A stretch of DNA of 64,000 nucleotides from positions 5,248,001 through 5,312,000 of the forward strand of contig OZ244042.1 in the NCBI GenBank assembly GCA_965215015.1. Direction: 5' to 3'. Each line of letters starts with the position of its first letter. The first letter of the stretch is position 1. This document shows positions 46,640-59,786 of the stretch, piece after piece. A program made the translations under genes and the position numbers. This DNA is from Candidatus Poribacteria bacterium (lineage in GTDB: Bacteria; Poribacteria; WGA-4E; PCPOR2b). Below the pieces are notes generated by a model. It made no database searches. It was not told where the DNA came from and saw only the letters and a program-made list of their open reading frames with translations.

Positions 46640-46841
46640 TAGCTTTCGTGGGAGTGTCTCACCCCTATCGCACGATAGGGACTCGTACCTCCCGTGAGAC
46701 GGAATGAGAGAACGCCTGTTAGGCAAAGCCTAACCGAGAGGCTACAAGCCATCTGACAGCGGCTAACAGACAGGATAGAGCCATTCCACTCCTAAAGGAA
46801 CAAGTAAGAATCCCAAGCCTTTAGGGGTGGGGGTACGTCAA
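46640..46841 (+). ncRNA. ORF-less structured element ending in an IS200/IS605 right end (omegaRNA-like or non-autonomous element)
   Basis: Multiple stems (CCCTATCG/CGATAGGG, GTCTCAC/GTGAGAC, GGAATG/CATTCC, CTGTTAG/CTAACAG, CCACTCCTAAAGG/CCTTTAGGGGTGG); 3' ~75 nt homologous to 37105-37183; TTGATT-N18-TACATT at 46606-46635. Confidence 0.55.
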
Positions 46842-47100
46842 AAGTTCATCGCTATACGTCTATCGCCCCGCCCCGATAGGTCGGGATTCAAAAGCAAGGT
46901 GCTTACTACTGTTTCCCGCTTCAATTGGGATTGGGTGTTGGGTTTCACGGTTCCCGTTTAACCCCACTCCGTTCGGAGGGTCTTCGACCTACGCGATGTC
47001 AAATGTCAACACGCCCTAGCAAAGCCATTTTTAGGTCATTTGAGGGATTTGCCCCAAAATGGACCTTCTCAAAGACGGATTGGAAATGTTTGACGGATTC

Positions 47101-47835
47101 TTAACCCTCATGATTTTGCCAATCGATTTCATCAAGTGTCTCTGCGGTCAGCACTTTCTCAAAAAGTGAATCCAAACGGGACAGACTCCGTATCAAGCTA
47201 ATCTGACTGGTTACAGATTCAGGAACGGAATCAAATCGGAACCGCAGCAGCTTGAGGAGTACCGCCTGTGTCGCTTGGGTTTTGCCCTGTTCAATGCTCT
47301 GTTCAATGCCTTGTTTAATGCCCTGTTCAATGCCTTGTTCAATACCTTGTTTAATGCCCTGTTCAATACCTTGTTCAATACCTTGTGCTTTGCCCTGTTC
47401 AATGAGATGCTCTGCCATTGTCTGCACCATGAATCCTACCTCCTCTCTATCTGAAGACTCTTGAATATGTTGGGCTACAAGTCTGCTTAACTCTTCTTTG
47501 AAATGTTTGACGGATTCTTGGCCATCATGATTTTGCCAATCGATTTCATCAAGTGTTTCTGCGGTCAGCACTTTCTCAAAGAGCGAATCCAAACGGGACA
47601 GATTCCGTATCAAGCTAATCTGATTGACTACAGATTCAGGAACGGAATCAAATCGGAACCGCAGCAGCTTGAGGAGTACCGCCTGTGTCGCTTGGGTTTT
47701 GCCCTGTTCAATGCCTTGGGCTTTGCCCCGTTCAATGCTCTGTTCAATGCCTTGTTTAATGCCCTGTTTAATGCCTTGTTTAATGCCTTGGGCTTTGCCC
47801 TGTTCAATGAGATGCTCTGCCATTGTCTGCGCCAT
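47101..47835 (-). CDS. Two fused orphan Rpn C-terminal modules (GIEQ repeats plus DUF4351-like domain)
   Basis: Both halves nearly identical to the C-terminus of 48521-49807; each has GGAGGT-N7-ATG (47835, 47430); fused by TAA>CAA at 47520-47518. Confidence 0.75.
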   Translation of the reverse strand: MAQTMAEHLIEQGKAQGIKQGIKQGIKQGIEQSIERGKAQGIEQGKTQATQAVLLKLLRFRFDSVPESVVNQISLIRNLSRLDSLFEKVLTAETLDEIDWQNHDGQESVKHFKEELSRLVAQHIQESSDREEVGFMVQTMAEHLIEQGKAQGIEQGIEQGIKQGIEQGIEQGIKQGIEQSIEQGKTQATQAVLLKLLRFRFDSVPESVTSQISLIRSLSRLDSLFEKVLTAETLDEIDWQNHEG

Positions 47836-47922
47836 GAATCCTACCTCCTCTCTATCTGAAGACTCTTGAATATGTTGGGCTACAAGTCTGCTTAACTCTT
47901 CTTTGAAATGTTTGACAGATTC

Positions 47923-48435
47923 TTAACCATCATGATTTTGCCAATCAATTTCATCAAGTGTCTCTGCAGTCAGCACTTTCTCAAAAAGTGAGTCCAAACG
48001 CGACAGACTCCGTATCAAGCTAATCTGATTGACTACAGATTCAGGAACGGAATCAAATCGGAGCCGCAGCAGCTTGAGGAGTGCCGCCTGTTTCGCTTGG
48101 GCCTCACCCTGTTCAATGAGATGCTCTGCCATTGTCTGCGCCATGAATCCTACCTCCTCTCTATCTGAAGATTCTTGAATATGTTGGGCTACAAGTCTGC
48201 TTAACTCTTCGTGCTCCGCCACAGGACGACGATGTAATATCAGCAAAAGCAGATAGGATATCGCCCGACGACGCTGCCGCGCTTGCGCTTCACCAAGAGT
48301 ATTGATGTGCAACATCGCTTCGATTAACGCACCCCTTATCACTGCCTTGGACCCATCTTCCTTTTGCAAAACCGTTAACAACCACCCAAGCGGATGGTCA
48401 GTCCGCGTCAACTTCGCTTCATCTGTCTCCTTCAT
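47923..48435 (-). CDS. Orphan 3' duplicate of the rpn gene (no nuclease motif; internal start 48144 gives a 73-aa repeat-less module)
   Basis: Near-identical to residues ~179-428 of the full gene minus the repeats; GGAGGTAGGATTC-ATG at 48144. Confidence 0.72.
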   Translation of the reverse strand: MKETDEAKLTRTDHPLGWLLTVLQKEDGSKAVIRGALIEAMLHINTLGEAQARQRRRAISYLLLLILHRRPVAEHEELSRLVAQHIQESSDREEVGFMAQTMAEHLIEQGEAQAKQAALLKLLRLRFDSVPESVVNQISLIRSLSRLDSLFEKVLTAETLDEIDWQNHDG

Positions 48436-48520
48436 ACTGAGAAACAGTTTTTAGGTCATTTGAGGGATTTGCCCCAAAATGGACCTTCTCAAAGGCAGAT
48501 TGGAAATGTTTGACGGATTC

Positions 48521-49807
48521 TTAGCCATCATGATTTTGCCAATCGATTTCATCAAGCGTCTCTGCGGTCAGCACTTTCTCAAAAAGTGAGTCCAAACGCG
48601 ACAGACTCCGTATCAAGCTAATCTGATTGACTACAGATTCAGGAACGGAATCAAATCGGAGCCGCAGCAGCTTGAGGAGTGCCGCCTGTGTCGCTCGGGC
48701 CTCACCCTGTTCAATGCCTTGTTCAATGCCTTGGGCTTTGCCTTGTTCAATACCTTGTTCAATGCCCTGTTCAATGCCTTGTTCAATGCCTTGTGCTTTG
48801 CCCTGTTCAATGCCTTGGGCTTTGCCCTGTTCAATACCTTGGGCTTTGCCCTGTTCGATACCTTCGGCTTTGCCTTGTTCGATACCTTCGGCTTTGCCTT
48901 GTTCAATGCCTTGTGCTTTGCCTTGTTCAATGCCTTGGGCTTTGCCCCGTTCAATGAGATGCTCTGCCATTGTCTGCGCCATGAGTCCTACCTCCTCTCT
49001 ATCTGAAGACTCTTGAATATGTTGGTCTACAAGTCTACTTAACTCTTCGTGCTCCACCACAGGACGACGATGTAATATCAGCAAAAGTAGATAGGATATC
49101 GCCCGACGCCGCTGCCGCGCTTCCGCTTCACCAAGAGTATTAATGTGCAACAGCGCTTCGATTAACGCACCCCTTATCACTTCCTTGGACCCATCTTCCT
49201 TTTGCAAAACCGTTAACAACCACCCAAGCGGATGATCAGTCCGCGTCAACTTCGCTTCATCTGTCTCCTTCACACTGAGAAACAGGGTGTCGAACTTCGG
49301 GACAAACCGAGAAAACACATCGGAAGTGTCCATGACTGCATCGAGGGTCAACGGGGTGCCCCATCTCTGTTCGCCGGTGTAGAATACAATCGGGAGAATC
49401 GGACGGAAACGCCACTGACTTTTGGGAACATTGTTGGATTCCCACTCCCGGCGTTGGGCATCCCAAATCTGGGTCATGTAGAACAGCACCCGAAATCCCA
49501 TTATCACATCGACGGTGGATTGGTGTTCGATGAGGATATAGATTAGCAGCTGGTCGGTTTCTGATTCGCTATGGAGTGGCACGCTAAATACGAGGTCCGA
49601 TTCCTGCTGTCGGAGGTTGTCGGTTATAAAACTCCTGTTAATCTGTGCGAGTTGGGTAAAATCGATGAGTTCTACCAGTTCGGTTGCGAGGATTTCTAAC
49701 AATCCTCGGACATTGTGTTTATCTTGAAACAACCATCGGGCACTCCGGTCGGGGAAGTGTTCAATGTGTATGTCGAAAAAATTGAGGATTTCTGTTGCTT
49801 CTACCAT
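48521..49807 (-). CDS. Rpn/YhgA-like (Transposase_31, PD-(D/E)XK) nuclease with 12-bp repeat tract and DUF4351-like tail
   Basis: SFITDNLRQQESDLVFSV, YILIEHQS, MGFRVLFYM, PILPIVFYTG; 20 GKAQ/GIEQ repeats; AAGGAG RBS; internal GGAGGT-N7-ATG at 48982. Confidence 0.92.
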   Translation of the reverse strand: MVEATEILNFFDIHIEHFPDRSARWLFQDKHNVRGLLEILATELVELIDFTQLAQINRSFITDNLRQQESDLVFSVPLHSESETDQLLIYILIEHQSTVDVIMGFRVLFYMTQIWDAQRREWESNNVPKSQWRFRPILPIVFYTGEQRWGTPLTLDAVMDTSDVFSRFVPKFDTLFLSVKETDEAKLTRTDHPLGWLLTVLQKEDGSKEVIRGALIEALLHINTLGEAEARQRRRAISYLLLLILHRRPVVEHEELSRLVDQHIQESSDREEVGLMAQTMAEHLIERGKAQGIEQGKAQGIEQGKAEGIEQGKAEGIEQGKAQGIEQGKAQGIEQGKAQGIEQGIEQGIEQGIEQGKAQGIEQGIEQGEARATQAALLKLLRLRFDSVPESVVNQISLIRSLSRLDSLFEKVLTAETLDEIDWQNHDG

Positions 49808-50050
49808 AGCTCCTTAGATTTTCAAACAGGTTCTGAGACAAACCTAGAATGTCGAGATATGAATCTTGACCTACGAGTATTAGATTGGGCTAGCAGATCA
49901 GGCGAGGCCGCCCAGCTTACAAATTATGGATAAGGTTGGGGGGAGCTGTAAACCTGCCCTATCAACTCTTATAGTTTAGTATAGTTTAGTGATTCATTGT
50001 TGCACAACATGACGCACAACGCTCGATCCCAATTCCGTCAGTCCTACTTC

Positions 50051-54872: not shown

Positions 54873-54977
54873 AAACTTGGGGCATTGTTAATAATCATTA
54901 CTGTTTTTGTGTGCGAAATCCTGCCTTGACCGGCAGAAAGCCACAGGAACTATCAATCTTTCGCAAGGAGATTGGAT

Positions 54978-57900
54978 ATGCCAGAAACATCACAATTTTA
55001 CCTAGGTTTGGAGGTGGGAAGTGGGGAAATAGGAACCGGACTCCAAGGGATCCTAAATCACATCCGCGAGACTGCTACTTCCGAATACCTCATCGGTAAT
55101 GAATTTGAACGACTCATGAAACAGTATTTCTGTGTAGACCCGCTTTACAAAGAGCGGTTTACCGATGTCTATCTGTGGAAAGAGTGGGCTGCGCTCCGTA
55201 CAGAATACGACGGTGGCGATATCGGAATTGACCTCGTTGCACGAGAGAGCAACGGCGAGTACTGTGCGATTCAGTGCAAATGTTTTGCGGAGAATACACG
55301 GGTTACGAAGCCACAGATTGATTCGTTTATCTCCGCTTCAGCGGCCGAGGTGTTCACAAAGCGAATTCTTGTCCATACGGGGGCTGAGTTAGGCCCAAAC
55401 GTACGCAAAACCATCGAGCCGCTGGGGCCCGATTTCCAAGTGATTGGCTATGGCCATCTTGCCAGTCGACCGATCGACTGGCCCGATCTGCGCCATGAAG
55501 CACCGGAAAAACTGGACTATCGGGTAGAGCGGTTCGATCTGAGAGATCATCAACAGGAAGCGTTTAATGATGTTATCAACGGGTTCAAAGGTGCCGATCG
55601 GGGCAAACTCATCATGGCCTGCGGGACCGGCAAGACCTTTACCGCCCTGAAAATCGCTGAGAGGATGGCGGGTATAGGCGGTAGAGTGCTCTATCTCGTT
55701 CCATCCATTGGTTTATTTTCGCAGGCGATGCGAGAATGGGCAGAGCAGCAGGGGGTACAGCATCGTTATATAGGAATCTGTTCCGATACAAGTGCCGGTA
55801 AAAAGAGTGAGGATGTGCCCATTCAAGAATTGGAGATACCGGTCACCACAAATCCGTCCAAGATTGCTGGAGCACTGCAGAAGACAGATGCGGACGCGAT
55901 GACAGTGGTATTCTGCACCTATCATTCGCTCCCCATCGTCGAGAGTGCACAGGAACAAGGCGCGCCGGCGTTTGACCTGGTTCTTTGTGACGAGGCACAT
56001 AGAACCACCGGCATTGAGGATATTGAAAACACAACCTCTCCATTCGTGCTTGTACACAATGCTGAGCGCATTCGTGCAAAAAAGCGGCTCTACATGACCG
56101 CGACGCCACGGCTTTACACCGAAGGCGCGAAAGCAAAAGCCGCCCGCCATGACATCGAGGTGTTCTCAATGGACGACCCCGACACCTATGGCCTCGAGTT
56201 TCACCGTCTCCCCTTCTCCAGAGCCGTTGAGCAAGATCTACTCTCCGACTACAAGGTGGCAATCTTTACCATGTATGAGCCGGATGCGGCCGCGACGCTA
56301 GAAAAATATATCGGGACGGACGGGAGCGAGATTAATATTACCGATGCGACCAAGTTTGTCGGCTGCTGGCGGGCACTCCAAGACCCGGAGGGCAGGTCCG
56401 GTGACGACGCAACGAACCAGTCCCTGACACGCGCGATCGCATTCAACAACACCATCCGCAATTCAAAGCGTCTAGCCGAGCATTGGAACGGGGTGATTGA
56501 GAGTGCCATCGAACAGATGCCGGAGGACCTGCGCCCCCTCAATTTTGAATGCGAAACGCAGCATGTTGATGGGCAGCACAACGCGTTCGATCGGAAAACT
56601 CGAATCGAATGGCTGAAAGGCAGCACCGGTGCTTGTCGCATCCTCTCAAATGCGCGCTGTCTCTCCGAGGGCATTGATGTGCCCGCACTCGACGCAGTAA
56701 TCTTTATGACCCCTAAGAACTCGCATATTGACATTGTGCAAGCGGTGGGGCGTGTCATGCGGAAAGCACCGGGCAAGGAATACGGCTACATCATACTGCC
56801 GGTTGCAATTCCCCCCGGCACAGATCCCGCCGCTGCCCTCGACAACAATGAACGCTTCGCCGTTGTGTGGAATGTCCTACGCGCCTTGCGGTCCCACGAC
56901 GACAGACTCAACGCCGAAATCAACAAAATTGACCTCAGCACGGCACCCACCGATCGGATTCTCTTCCCTAACGGGGGCGGCGATGGAGACGGGGACGAGG
57001 AGGCCCTACAACAGTTAATTTCATTCGGCCTGGCAGAAATTCCGCCCCAAGATATTTACGCTAAAATTGTGGAGCGATGTGGCGACCGGAAATACTGGGA
57101 GAGCTGGGCGAAGGATGTCGCAGATATTTTTCAGCGAGTCGTCGTCCGAATCAAAAACCTACTGGACAATCCGGACAACGATGTGCTGCACGAATGGTTC
57201 AATAACTTCCATAAGGAGTTAAGAGAAACGATAAATGCCTCGATTACTCGGGACGCTGCGATTGAGATGATGGCGCAGCATCTCCTGACCCGTCCTGTCT
57301 TTGAGGCACTGTTCGAGAATTACAACTTTGCATCTGGCAACCCTGTGGCAATTGCGCTGGACAGTCTACGGAACGATTTTGGAGAATTTGGGTTTGAGGA
57401 CGAAACGCGGGATTTAGAGGGATTTTACGAAAGCGTCCGGCTGCGCGCCCGCGGCATTGACAACAGCGAAGGGCGGCAACGCGTCCTATTGGAGCTCTAC
57501 GAGAAGTTTTTCGCCACTGCCTTGAAAAAGGAAGCTGAACGGCTCGGCATCGTCTACACACCTGTTGAGGTTGTGGACTTCATCTTACACAGTGCCGCTG
57601 AAGTGTTGCGGCAGGAGTTCGGCAGAAGTCTGAGCGATGAGGGTGTTCATGTGCTCGATCCGTTCACCGGTACTGGCGTTTTTCTCGCCCGTTTGCTTCA
57701 ATCTGACCTTATCCAAGCGTCCGATCTTGAACGGAAATATCGTGAGGAGCTACATGCCAATGAGCTTGTCTTGCTGGCCTACTATATCGCGGCGGTTAAT
57801 ATAGAAGAAGCGTTCCGTGGACGACGTGGAGAAGATAGCGGCTACGAGCCGTTCAAGGGCATCGTCTTAACCGATACATTCAACCTGAACAGAGAGGGGG

Positions 57901-59786
57901 ACCCAACCCTCTTCCCGAAAGAGTGGCTGCCGGACAACAACGCCCGCGCCGAACGTCAACAGAAACTCCCTATCCAAATCATCGTTGGGAACCCACCTTG
58001 GTCAGCAGGGCAGAAGAGTTCAGCGGACGACAACCCCAACGTAGACTATCCTGCACTTGAAAAACGCATTGCAGAAACCTACGCCGCCCGGTCCATAACT
58101 ACGAATAAAAACAGTCTCTATGACACATACAAGATGGCAATCCGCTGGGCATCGGACAGAGTTCAGGAACAGGGAATCATCGCCTTTGTTACCAACGGTT
58201 CGTGGATTGATGGAAACGTTGATACAGGTATTCGGGCATGTTTTGCCGAGGAGTTTAGTTCAATCTATGTCCTGAACTTGCGCGGAAATCAACGTACTCA
58301 GGGAGAACGTTCACGTTGTGAGGGAGGCAAAGTATTTGGTTCAGGCTCAAGGGCACCCGTTGCTATCACAATACTGGTCAAAAATCCGAACGCTGCACAC
58401 AACGGTTGTCTCATCCGCTATTGTGATATCGGTAGCTATCTTAGCCGCGAGCAGAAGCTGGAAGCACTTCACGACGCACAGTCAATCTCGGGGTTCAGCG
58501 ATTGGCAAAAGATCACGCCCGATAAGCATTACGATTGGATTGGACAGCGCAGCGAAGCGTTTGCTCGGTTCTATCCGATGGGATCGAAGGAGACTAAGGC
58601 GGGTAAGGCGGACAATGCAATATTCAGGTTGTATTCGCAGGGATTGAAGACAGGCAGAGACTCATATCTCTACAATTTCTCTCGTGATGCCTGTGCCGAG
58701 AATGCGCTGCGAATGACGCAGGATTACCTTGCTGCGTTCTCCGATAGGGAACAGAACCCTAAACTCACGGAAGAGGCGGCTGCGCGACGTCACTCATCAA
58801 ATCTTAAGTGGGATCGGGAGCTCAAGAACAATCTGAAGCGAAAGAAAAAGCCCCAATTTGAGGATGGCTACATTCGGAAGGTTGTGTATCGACCCTTCGT
58901 TGCCACGAATTGTTACGCGGACTACACCTTCGTACAGATGAAGTACCAGATGGATCGAATTTTCCCAGACAGTGCGATCGAAAATCGCGCGATATGTGTT
59001 CCCGGCATCGGCTCGAAAAAGGCATTTTCCGCGCTTATAACCGATACAGTGCCGGATCTTGGTTTTAATAATGCCTCACAGTGCTTCCCGCGGTACCGAT
59101 ATCGGAAGCCGACGGATGCGACGGATACGGCAAAAGTGCAGGACGAGTTTCCGGGGATTCAACCGAAGCCGGATTGCATTGACAACATCTCAGATCTGGC
59201 GTTCCGCTCCTTCCGTGAGCATTATCGCGATGATACAATCACAAAAGATGCAATATTTGATTATGTTTACGGGATTCTACATTCTCCGAGTTATCGAGAA
59301 GAATTCGCAAACGATTTGTCGAAGGAGATACCTCGTATCCCATTCGCCCCCGATTTCCACGCCTTCGCAGAAGCTGGGAAAACACTTGCAGCACTCCACC
59401 TCGGTTATGAGACGTGCGAACAGTACCCGCTCTCCCTCGTGTTTGCTCATAACGGGGAGCCGCAACCGCATCATTTTCGGTTGACTGAGAAGGCGATGTG
59501 TTTCGCTACGCCTGCAAAAACGACGCTCATTATCAACGAGCACCTACGCTTATCGGGTATCCCGCAGGCGGCGCATCAGTACGTCGTCAACGGCAGAACG
59601 CCGCTGGAGTGGTTCATTGACCGCTACAAGATAAAACGGGACAGGGACAGCGGTATTCGCAACGATCCGAACGGTTGGTTTGCAGACCCCCGTGATCTGG
59701 TCACAGCCATCGAACGCATCGTTTATGTCAGTGTGGAATCAACTCGGGTTATTGAAGAGTTGCCTTCTCTTTTGTCTGAATCATGA
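54978..59786 (+). CDS. Type ISP restriction-modification enzyme (LlaGI/LlaBIII-like nuclease-helicase-methyltransferase-TRD fusion)
   Basis: Mrr-type GIDLVA...AIQCK; SF2 MACGTGKT, DEAH, MTATPR, QAVGRVMRK; MTase VLDPFTGTG, GNPPW; C-terminal YRPF, QCFP, YVVNGRTPLEW, NDPN. AAGGAG-N7-ATG. Confidence 0.95.
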   Translation: MPETSQFYLGLEVGSGEIGTGLQGILNHIRETATSEYLIGNEFERLMKQYFCVDPLYKERFTDVYLWKEWAALRTEYDGGDIGIDLVARESNGEYCAIQCKCFAENTRVTKPQIDSFISASAAEVFTKRILVHTGAELGPNVRKTIEPLGPDFQVIGYGHLASRPIDWPDLRHEAPEKLDYRVERFDLRDHQQEAFNDVINGFKGADRGKLIMACGTGKTFTALKIAERMAGIGGRVLYLVPSIGLFSQAMREWAEQQGVQHRYIGICSDTSAGKKSEDVPIQELEIPVTTNPSKIAGALQKTDADAMTVVFCTYHSLPIVESAQEQGAPAFDLVLCDEAHRTTGIEDIENTTSPFVLVHNAERIRAKKRLYMTATPRLYTEGAKAKAARHDIEVFSMDDPDTYGLEFHRLPFSRAVEQDLLSDYKVAIFTMYEPDAAATLEKYIGTDGSEINITDATKFVGCWRALQDPEGRSGDDATNQSLTRAIAFNNTIRNSKRLAEHWNGVIESAIEQMPEDLRPLNFECETQHVDGQHNAFDRKTRIEWLKGSTGACRILSNARCLSEGIDVPALDAVIFMTPKNSHIDIVQAVGRVMRKAPGKEYGYIILPVAIPPGTDPAAALDNNERFAVVWNVLRALRSHDDRLNAEINKIDLSTAPTDRILFPNGGGDGDGDEEALQQLISFGLAEIPPQDIYAKIVERCGDRKYWESWAKDVADIFQRVVVRIKNLLDNPDNDVLHEWFNNFHKELRETINASITRDAAIEMMAQHLLTRPVFEALFENYNFASGNPVAIALDSLRNDFGEFGFEDETRDLEGFYESVRLRARGIDNSEGRQRVLLELYEKFFATALKKEAERLGIVYTPVEVVDFILHSAAEVLRQEFGRSLSDEGVHVLDPFTGTGVFLARLLQSDLIQASDLERKYREELHANELVLLAYYIAAVNIEEAFRGRRGEDSGYEPFKGIVLTDTFNLNREGDPTLFPKEWLPDNNARAERQQKLPIQIIVGNPPWSAGQKSSADDNPNVDYPALEKRIAETYAARSITTNKNSLYDTYKMAIRWASDRVQEQGIIAFVTNGSWIDGNVDTGIRACFAEEFSSIYVLNLRGNQRTQGERSRCEGGKVFGSGSRAPVAITILVKNPNAAHNGCLIRYCDIGSYLSREQKLEALHDAQSISGFSDWQKITPDKHYDWIGQRSEAFARFYPMGSKETKAGKADNAIFRLYSQGLKTGRDSYLYNFSRDACAENALRMTQDYLAAFSDREQNPKLTEEAAARRHSSNLKWDRELKNNLKRKKKPQFEDGYIRKVVYRPFVATNCYADYTFVQMKYQMDRIFPDSAIENRAICVPGIGSKKAFSALITDTVPDLGFNNASQCFPRYRYRKPTDATDTAKVQDEFPGIQPKPDCIDNISDLAFRSFREHYRDDTITKDAIFDYVYGILHSPSYREEFANDLSKEIPRIPFAPDFHAFAEAGKTLAALHLGYETCEQYPLSLVFAHNGEPQPHHFRLTEKAMCFATPAKTTLIINEHLRLSGIPQAAHQYVVNGRTPLEWFIDRYKIKRDRDSGIRNDPNGWFADPRDLVTAIERIVYVSVESTRVIEELPSLLSES

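Follow-up and report, generated by a model that had tools for sequence, protein, structure and literature searches.

Rpn proteins whose genes contain an internal translation start are the closest described systems to the locus studied here, an rpn gene followed by three copies of its C-terminal module in a 64,000-nucleotide (nt) stretch of a Candidatus Poribacteria genome (assembly GCA_965215015.1, contig OZ244042.1, positions 5,248,001 to 5,312,000 of the forward strand; this whole stretch is called the window, and the locus is given in its numbering). The small protein RpnS is made from the internal start and neutralises the toxic full-length product RpnL (PMC10400941; commentary PMC10400984). 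RpnA_S is a dimeric three-helix bundle with repeats of four amino acids (aa) in its long first helix, these hypervariable repeats start 8-20 residues after the internal Met, and one repeat added to RpnC_S or RpnC_LS abolishes neutralisation unless both have it (PMC10400941). RpnS is also encoded separately, in genes annotated as DUF4351, namely ypaA (rpnE_Ss) 3' of rpnE and rpnC_Ss 3' of rpnC; YpaA protein has been detected by sequential peptide affinity (SPA) tag, each downstream RpnSs copy groups with the gene that precedes it, and such copies can be lost through deletion or when the N-terminal domain becomes fused to the rpnSs region (PMC10400941). On the function of RpnSs, the main text of that paper, as distinct from its supplement (which may list multi-copy arrays), reports protein detection only. 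Its Discussion proposes that RpnL itself may start the recombination that produces small downstream homologues, and the rpn gene arrays that it describes are tandem direct duplications without target-site duplications.

In E. coli K-12 (NC_000913.3 2357816-2358001), ypaA starts 13 nt past the stop of rpnE. The duplicated unit opens 14 nt before the internal ATG and takes in AAGGAG, and ypaA has one four-residue unit more than RpnE_S. The window locus resembles rpnE-ypaA and rpnC-rpnC_Ss in that an rpn gene with an internal RpnS start is followed by small module genes with Shine-Dalgarno sequence, ATG and stop, and in that the downstream copies group with the gene that they follow (PMC10400941); as in ypaA, the copies differ from the parent in the number of four-residue repeats. 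Here, however, there are three copies and not one, the host is an uncultured member of the Poribacteria, copy 2 also includes middle domain, copies 3 and 4 make up a fused RpnS-RpnS frame with an internal start, and the repeat numbers lie 11 to 20 units off the parent, not one. Like the tandem rpn arrays (PMC10400941), the locus consists of direct tandem duplications, but here they are nested and have defined junctions, and the C-terminal module alone is multiplied, whereas the text of the paper (SI Fig. S1B aside) describes arrays of rpn genes.

We hold with high confidence that the locus is an RpnL/RpnS toxin-antitoxin gene (of the anti-phage type) with three free-standing RpnSs (ypaA-like) duplicates, referred to as orphans: copies 2-4, i.e. 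C-terminal (RpnS) modules 3' of the full gene, all on the minus strand. This identity is the broader claim and would hold alike if the orphans are translated and selected, serve as a recombination reservoir or are neutral. That they are expressed and selected as RpnS-type proteins we consider moderately likely. The first-pass annotation of the window, made from the letters alone, had proposed RpnS-type (DUF4351) modules split from an Rpn gene and equipped with their own Shine-Dalgarno sequence and ATG, which the sequence supports; the arrangement is not new, as a free-standing RpnS 3' of rpn is already described (PMC10400941) and K-12 has the same anatomy. The locus thus extends a published layout: it is an expanded three-copy form of rpn-rpnSs in a clade rich in orphans.

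Orphan cdiA-CT/cdiI modules of contact-dependent inhibition (CDI) systems and orphan Rhs-CT/immunity modules are displaced C-terminal modules in tandem 3' of a full gene, with homologous junctions that could allow tail replacement. The layout here is alike, with tandem C-terminal modules that have junction homology in common. A CDI or Rhs orphan, however, is a toxin tip plus an immunity gene, whereas here the orphan is an antitoxin-like domain and the nuclease is the constant N-terminus; the orphans carry the DUF4351/RpnS domain alone, without a nuclease domain, and differ in this from the pairing of toxin tip and immunity gene, and no secretion is involved. Chromosomal orphan antitoxins can also act as anti-addiction modules, and the orphans are like these in being chromosomal antitoxin genes without a toxin of their own, but the source genome holds no length-matched target toxin. 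An action of the orphans against incoming rpn genes is speculation.

The rpn gene and its downstream copies

The features of the locus, given with their open reading frames (ORFs), are as follows.

49808..49834, minus strand: upstream leader of 27 nt, common to a paralogous cassette at 2.41 Mb; upstream limit of the cassette homology
48521..49807, minus strand: full rpn gene (RpnL), 428-aa ORF; domain order N-terminal YhgA-like PD-(D/E)XK nuclease, middle domain, 21 four-residue units, C-terminal three-helix RpnS/DUF4351
48521..48995, minus strand: internal RpnS reading frame of the full rpn gene; GGAGGT at 48995-48990, ATG at 48982, 153 aa
48695..48949, minus strand: 12-bp (GKAQ/GIEQ) repeat tract of the full rpn gene, 85 residues, about 21 units; rows of Tandem Repeats Finder (TRF) at 48708-48956
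48448..48520, minus strand: 73-nt 3' flank of the full rpn gene, which recurs 3' of copy 4
47923..48447, minus strand: orphan copy 2, duplicate of codons ~176-428 minus repeats; 170-aa ORF, internal ATG at 48144, 73 aa
47518..47922, minus strand: orphan copy 3, a 405-nt unit with 18-nt flank, 69-nt leader plus Shine-Dalgarno sequence, ATG at 47835 and 105 codons
47101..47517, minus strand: orphan copy 4, with 18-nt flank, 69-nt leader plus Shine-Dalgarno sequence, ATG at 47430, 109 aa and TAA at 47103-47101
47019..47100, minus strand: second copy of the 73-nt 3' flank, which ends the cassette homology with the second genome locus

According to Pfam, PF04754 (Transposase_31, YhgA-like) matches residues 20-201 of RpnL with 98 bits (cut-off 21, E 7.4e-28), and PF14261 (DUF4351) matches its C-terminus weakly, with 18 bits against a cut-off of 25; the RpnA equivalog NF007361 scores 34.6 bits (cut-off 583). 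By eye, the stretches 'ESDLVFSV' and 'ILIEHQS' of RpnL line up with the 'YSDVLWSV' and 'VIEHQS' found in E. coli RpnE, a protein that RefSeq calls inactive. The internal GGAGGT-N7-ATG with its start at 48982, noticed in the first pass, is confirmed (48995-48980); it is predicted to give an in-frame product of 153 aa, and this start is conserved in relatives. In the predicted RpnS, the four-residue repeats begin at residue 12 after the internal Met, which fits the 8-20 residues given in PMC10400941 and supports the RpnS identity. When the full RpnL was searched by sequence against the PDB, the single hit was a meaningless low-complexity match to a rhoptry neck protein, and PADLOC matches and NCBIfam FliH matches at the locus were rejected as repeat-driven low complexity.

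The start region (AGGAGGTAGGATTC-ATG) is identical in all four modules. Counted from the end of MAQTMAEHLIE up to a conserved A[TK]QA, the full gene has 21 repeat units, copy 2 has 1, copy 3 has 9 and copy 4 has 10, which confirms the 20, 0, 8 and 9 extra repeats counted earlier. TRF describes the array with a period of 405, 2.5 copies, 91% matches and a score of 1736, and in self-blastn the copies align at 87-96% identity, with E values reaching 0; chance cannot account for repetition on this scale.

The unit duplicated in copy 2 begins at codon ~176 (49285 aligns to 48447, with 95% identity over 352 nt by self-blastn), and copy 2 therefore carries middle domain besides the tail. A GTG of the parent (Val179) has become ATG at 48435 in copy 2, opening the 170-aa ORF; no Shine-Dalgarno sequence is visible 5' of this ATG. 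Past its stop, copy 2 runs through 18 nt of native 3' flank, followed by a jump back to 66-69 nt before the internal start. The resulting junction, CATTTC/AAAGAAGAGTTAAGC, is present twice (47905/47904 and 47500/47499), and 66-69 nt of upstream sequence are kept before the ATG in copies 3 and 4, close to the earlier estimate of about 65 nt. The 73 nt past the stop of the full gene (48520-48448) recur after copy 4 (47100-47028), with 71/73 bases identical. Together, the double junction and the repeated flank show two nested tandem duplications, and 12-nt slippage followed. The first duplication copied the stretch from codon ~176 to 73 nt beyond the stop, and within the new copy a 405-nt unit, which opens 66-69 nt before the internal start and closes 18 nt after the stop codon, was duplicated again; slippage afterwards set the repeat tracts at 21, 1, 9 and 10 units, and the loss of one stop codon joined copies 3 and 4. 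Because the stop of copy 3 has become CAA (47520-47518), these two copies are one 244-aa ORF (47835..47101), in which copy 4 still has its internal Shine-Dalgarno sequence and ATG. Three tail modules had been described in the first pass, with starts at 48144 (for 73 aa), 47835 (for 105 aa, as far as the former stop) and 47430 (for 109 aa). The modules and their starts hold up, with two corrections: copy 2 includes middle domain, and copies 3 and 4 share one ORF.

PF14261 matches the 244-aa ORF in two stretches (Pfam, 41.7 bits, cut-off 25) and scores 21.9 bits on the 170-aa ORF of copy 2, slightly under the cut-off, and the Pfam scan found no PF04754 nuclease match in either downstream ORF. 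No frameshift or internal stop occurs in any of the modules, in agreement with the earlier statement that the copies have neither a frameshift or premature stop nor the nuclease motif. A promoter and terminator scan of the locus gave counts at the level of shuffled sequence, and two terminator-like sites sit within coding cores.

In the AlphaFold2 (AF2) model of copy 2 (47 sequences), helices span residues 5-29, 35-42 and 47-59, with a mean predicted local distance difference test (pLDDT) score of 87.6; set beside the three-helix bundle described in PMC10400941, the model is taken as a point in favour of the RpnS identity. The AF2 model of the fused 244-aa ORF consists of two modules, each with a long helix and two short helices, joined by a linker with pLDDT < 50, and the repeats lie in the long first helices (2-61 and 152-200).

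Orphans in the source genome and in other Poribacteria

The source genome (Candidatus Poribacteria) is a single 5.94-Mb contig and contains 8 PF04754 genes; 7 orphans are found in it, behind 5 of the 8. A second cassette at 2.41 Mb (2411783-2413354) is homologous to window positions 47019-49834 (95.7% identity between 48873-49834 and 2412393-2413354), the homology spanning 27 nt before the start to ~80 nt beyond the last stop. It comprises a 371-aa rpn gene (96% identical, 7 units) and one orphan with 4 units, joined by a duplication junction identical to that of the window array. Three further rpn genes belong to two other subfamilies, with RVEGKREG and LLEGKQEG repeats, and have one 3' orphan each:

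1505367-1506652: rpn plus orphan, from 10 units in the gene to 6 in the orphan
1516411-1517648: rpn plus orphan, from 8 units to 4
1622999-1624607: rpn plus orphan, from 15 units to 7

We searched the locus DNA against 41 genomes (source genome included) and copy 2 against 20 genomes of the genus; the relatives are all Candidatus Poribacteria metagenome-assembled genomes. Another species of the same genus (G003) contains an rpn gene and three orphans between the identical pair of flanking genes. Its unit starts ~24 nt before the ATG and ends ~7 nt past the stop, with junctions unlike those of the source genome, and its orphans 2 and 3 are fused by a 3-nt deletion that removed the stop. In a maximum-likelihood tree of 37 tails (186-nt cores), the six source-genome tails of the window subfamily form one clade (99/100) and the four G003 tails form another (100/100). 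The separate tail clades and the different junctions indicate that the two arrays expanded independently at one site, with concerted evolution of an old array as the alternative. The cassette is absent from five genomes of the genus (G002, G004, G011, G014 and G016), in which the flanks are 56-349 nt apart.

Out of 17 full genes of the window subfamily in the non-redundant genus set, 8 are followed by at least one orphan. Internally deleted rpn genes, whose first 25-36 codons run directly into a tail, were also observed (G004a, G006b, G007a, G015b) and would represent a second route to a stand-alone RpnS, and G007b is a lone tail. We note that in the deleted forms (L002, L035, L041, L048; G007, G006, G015, G004) the tail keeps its own Shine-Dalgarno sequence and ATG.

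A wider set contains 79 Poribacteria loci from species-representative genomes, the source genome apparently left out. Among the 57 full genes in these loci, 37 have no orphan, 16 have one, 2 have two (L063 and L114) and 2 have three (L066, which is the G003 locus, and L122, where all three orphans are open frames), i.e. 20 of the 57 have at least one orphan behind them. The three-orphan array of the window is at the top of the observed range, not unique. Another 26 tails have no full gene in the same frame; some of these are interrupted by a contig end or perhaps represent diverged full genes, and seven lie in open frames of 192-337 aa. Stand-alone proteins homologous to copy 2 number 143, with lengths of 40-128 aa. 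At one further locus (L047; G007:C1:744500-750500), the rpn gene is split after the first ~27 codons of the middle domain by ~1.1 kb of other DNA, and the rest of that domain and the tail follow.

The ratio of nonsynonymous to synonymous divergence (dN/dS), a check suggested in the first pass, was computed from Nei-Gojobori counts over a 62-codon core for 16 chosen orphan-only pairs, and it lies between 0.14 and 0.51 in 15 of these few, related and not independent pairs; the remaining pair (in G003) has a dN/dS of 1.68 on 9 differences. Full-gene pairs (n=2) give 0.22-0.23, and a clade of three tails known only as orphans or as nuclease-deleted forms gives 0.26-0.48. In a one-sided binomial test against the neutral share of nonsynonymous sites, P was below 0.05 in 6 of 10 pairs (W2-W3, P = 0.0013; G002/G014 orphans, P = 0.0018; two of the three pairs of the orphan-only clade, 0.008 and 0.010) and 0.12-0.15 in the other four. 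Between the orphans of the source genome, synonymous divergence is 0.10-0.26 and nonsynonymous divergence 0.04-0.07, and none of the 7 has a stop or frameshift. The ATG of the internal start is kept in 18 of 19 non-attached tails (genus set, by eye), with G015b_2 as the exception; in the wider set the start motif is found in 40/52 tails and a Shine-Dalgarno-like sequence in 36/52, both counts being lower bounds as the pattern misses variants. Given these dN/dS values and the start signals conserved in relatives, the orphans appear to be kept by selection.

Relatives also show an exchange of tails between genes. At one locus (G015; L008, C1:3582579-3586502), two tandem rpn genes have N domains that are 97.5% identical, middle domains that are 96.3% identical and tails that are 83.5% identical, and the orphans form a criss-cross with them: the one behind each gene matches the tail of the other gene at 96-98% identity. 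At the syntenic loci of G002 and G014, the N domains are 97.5%, the middle domains 85.4%, the attached tails 88.7% and the orphans 93.4% identical, and in the tree the G014 orphan falls among the G002 tails and apart from the gene that it follows. Because identities differ between body and tail in both cases, we conclude that in relatives the tails move with respect to the nuclease bodies, which agrees with the fusions of N-terminus and rpnSs described in PMC10400941. Nothing of the kind was seen in the source genome, where the window locus yielded no recombinant allele. The first-pass idea of a tail reservoir gains indirect support from the criss-cross in this respect, but finds no sign in the source genome.

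Repeat lengths and possible roles of the orphans

The numbers of repeat units of all RpnL tails and orphans compared in the source genome are listed by subfamily:

QGIE/QGKA subfamily: RpnL with 21 and 7 units; orphans with 1, 9, 10 and 4 units
RVEGKREG subfamily: RpnL with 10 and 8 units; orphans with 6 and 4 units
LLEGKQEG subfamily: RpnL with 15, 5 and 13 units; orphan with 7 units

As seen in this list, not one of the 7 orphans has the repeat length of an RpnL of its own subfamily (7 RpnL compared), and all 7 are shorter than the preceding rpn gene; these 7 comparisons are not independent events. Length matches are found in relatives, with 4 and 4 units in G002 and, in G015, a 1-unit orphan that equals the 1-unit tail of the neighbouring gene. 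If the published length rule, reported for RpnC, holds here, the orphans would neutralise neither their own RpnL nor its paralogues. The lack of a length match argues against a simple increase of antitoxin dose, and the earlier suggestion that the orphans raise antitoxin dose or cover other rpn paralogues is not supported, with 0/7 orphans length-matched under a rule that requires a match.

In the reading that we favour, each orphan would use its own Shine-Dalgarno sequence and ATG to yield a small protein of three helices, and these proteins may act as antitoxin-type binders of Rpn tails. Since no orphan length-matches any resident RpnL, they are probably not simply extra cis-antitoxin doses. 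They would be expected to pair with partners of equal length, i.e. with a second molecule of the same orphan, with another orphan, with the protein fused from copies 3 and 4, or with RpnL variants that arise by slippage or tail exchange, and would be at most weak tuners of the resident RpnL. PMC10400941 left two questions, the role of the downstream RpnS copies and the driver of variation in the 4-aa repeats, and the source genome bears on both: its orphans are unmatched in length and still conserved in frame, start signals and core domain. If the length rule is general, the copies cannot be plain spare antitoxin, and they would point to tuning, variant partners or material for tail switching. 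The locus also offers a ready panel for the length rule, with one toxin, four natural antitoxin lengths (21, 1, 9 and 10 units) and a natural RpnS-RpnS fusion.

Several observations weigh against this reading. RpnL scores 36.8 bits with TIGR01784 (Rpn family recombination-promoting nuclease/putative transposase; NCBIfam), under the cut-off of 52.1, for which reason we call the 428-aa RpnL a distant member of the Rpn/YhgA family. With the model of copy 2, Foldseek found no match in the PDB at E <= 0.001, and the best Z of VIA-align was 6.7, to generic helical bundles, with no Rpn entry listed; neither search brought up the RpnA_S crystal structure, although for a helical bundle this small such a miss decides little. 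RefSeq labels ypaA, the nearest described counterpart, as a pseudogene. Decay is seen in some orphans of relatives (in L114 the second one is truncated, and G015b_2 is without an ATG), and the absence of length matches in the source genome counts here as well. The dN/dS pairs are few, short and related, and gene conversion from an expressed parent could mimic constraint in orphan cores; the six window-subfamily tails do show mosaic differences within one clade.

The orphans might instead matter mainly as DNA: a tail swap would change the RpnL tail and its cognate internal RpnS together, because the same DNA encodes both, and translation of the orphans would be incidental. We regard this as unlikely. 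It draws on the criss-crossed tails of G015, on the differing identities of body and tail between G002 and G014 together with the grouping of the G014 orphan, and on the leader, Shine-Dalgarno sequence and head common to all copies, which give homology. Those exchanges, however, could stem from other full-length paralogues and not from orphans, no recombinant allele was seen at the window locus, and a fusion of the deletion type consumes copies. Tails without a neighbouring full gene keep a Shine-Dalgarno sequence and ATG that a silent cassette would not need, and the clade known only from orphans and nuclease-deleted forms evolves under constraint. A related and still tentative proposal is that the orphans are a cassette bank, in which recombination between tail and orphan would switch the helix length and sequence of the regulatory domain of the toxin and of the intragenic antitoxin together. 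If this were true, the defence system would diversify while toxin and antitoxin stay matched, in a manner resembling silent pilin cassettes or orphan CDI modules and applied to toxin-antitoxin specificity, and the finding that all 7 orphans are shorter than their parent could mean that they are archived earlier alleles.

Rather unlikely, in our view, is that the orphans are neutral by-products without a function of their own, left by recent tandem duplication (through slippage or Rpn-promoted recombination) and not yet decayed. The clustering of the tails of one genome would fit this, as would the few broken orphans of relatives and the suggestion in the Discussion of PMC10400941 that recombination started by RpnL makes small homologues, and steps of 12 nt preserve the frame regardless of selection. 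Neutral decay, however, is hard to square with a synonymous divergence of 0.10-0.26 against a nonsynonymous one of 0.04-0.07 between source-genome orphans that are all free of stops and frameshifts, or with the orthologous orphans of G002 and G014, which persist at 93% identity with an omega of 0.14; moreover, the duplication units begin just 5' of the Shine-Dalgarno sequence in three cases (source genome, G003 and E. coli K-12). It is very improbable that the array is an assembly artefact in which strain variants of one rpn tail were wrongly put together. The assembly is metagenome-derived, and the short-read contigs on the array (four Logan runs) are only 90-256 nt long, with no listed piece spanning the array or its junctions, but the genome forms one contig of 5.94 Mb, the window has the novel junction twice and the 2.41-Mb locus has it once, and comparable arrays are present in independent assemblies of other species. 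The proposal that the orphans are translated and selected as RpnS-type proteins is the one that we carry forward.

Surroundings of the locus

The neighbours of the rpn array encode an FGE-sulfatase/PEGA protein and a TPR/PD40 protein. Two short dispersed intergenic repeats, of which the genome has many copies with 75-96% identity, lie at 46762-46843 and 46899-47022, and the latter adjoins the downstream end of the rpn cassette (47019). Many short-read contigs have a loose end at one of the positions 46841/46842, 47019 and 49850. Short-read joints that skip ~2.9-3.1 kb were not taken as empty-site alleles, as their sides are only 21-23 letters and lie in dispersed repeats.

Elsewhere in the source genome, 3524938-3525120 (plus strand) gives a weak tail-like match (41% identity) inside a 348-aa frame without a PF04754 match, which may be a divergent Rpn-like protein. 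In the window, a Type ISP restriction-modification enzyme of 1604 aa is encoded at 54972-59786 on the plus strand, 5 kb from the rpn locus, with the domains Mrr_cat_2, ResIII, ISP coupler, N6_Mtase and Type_ISP_C.

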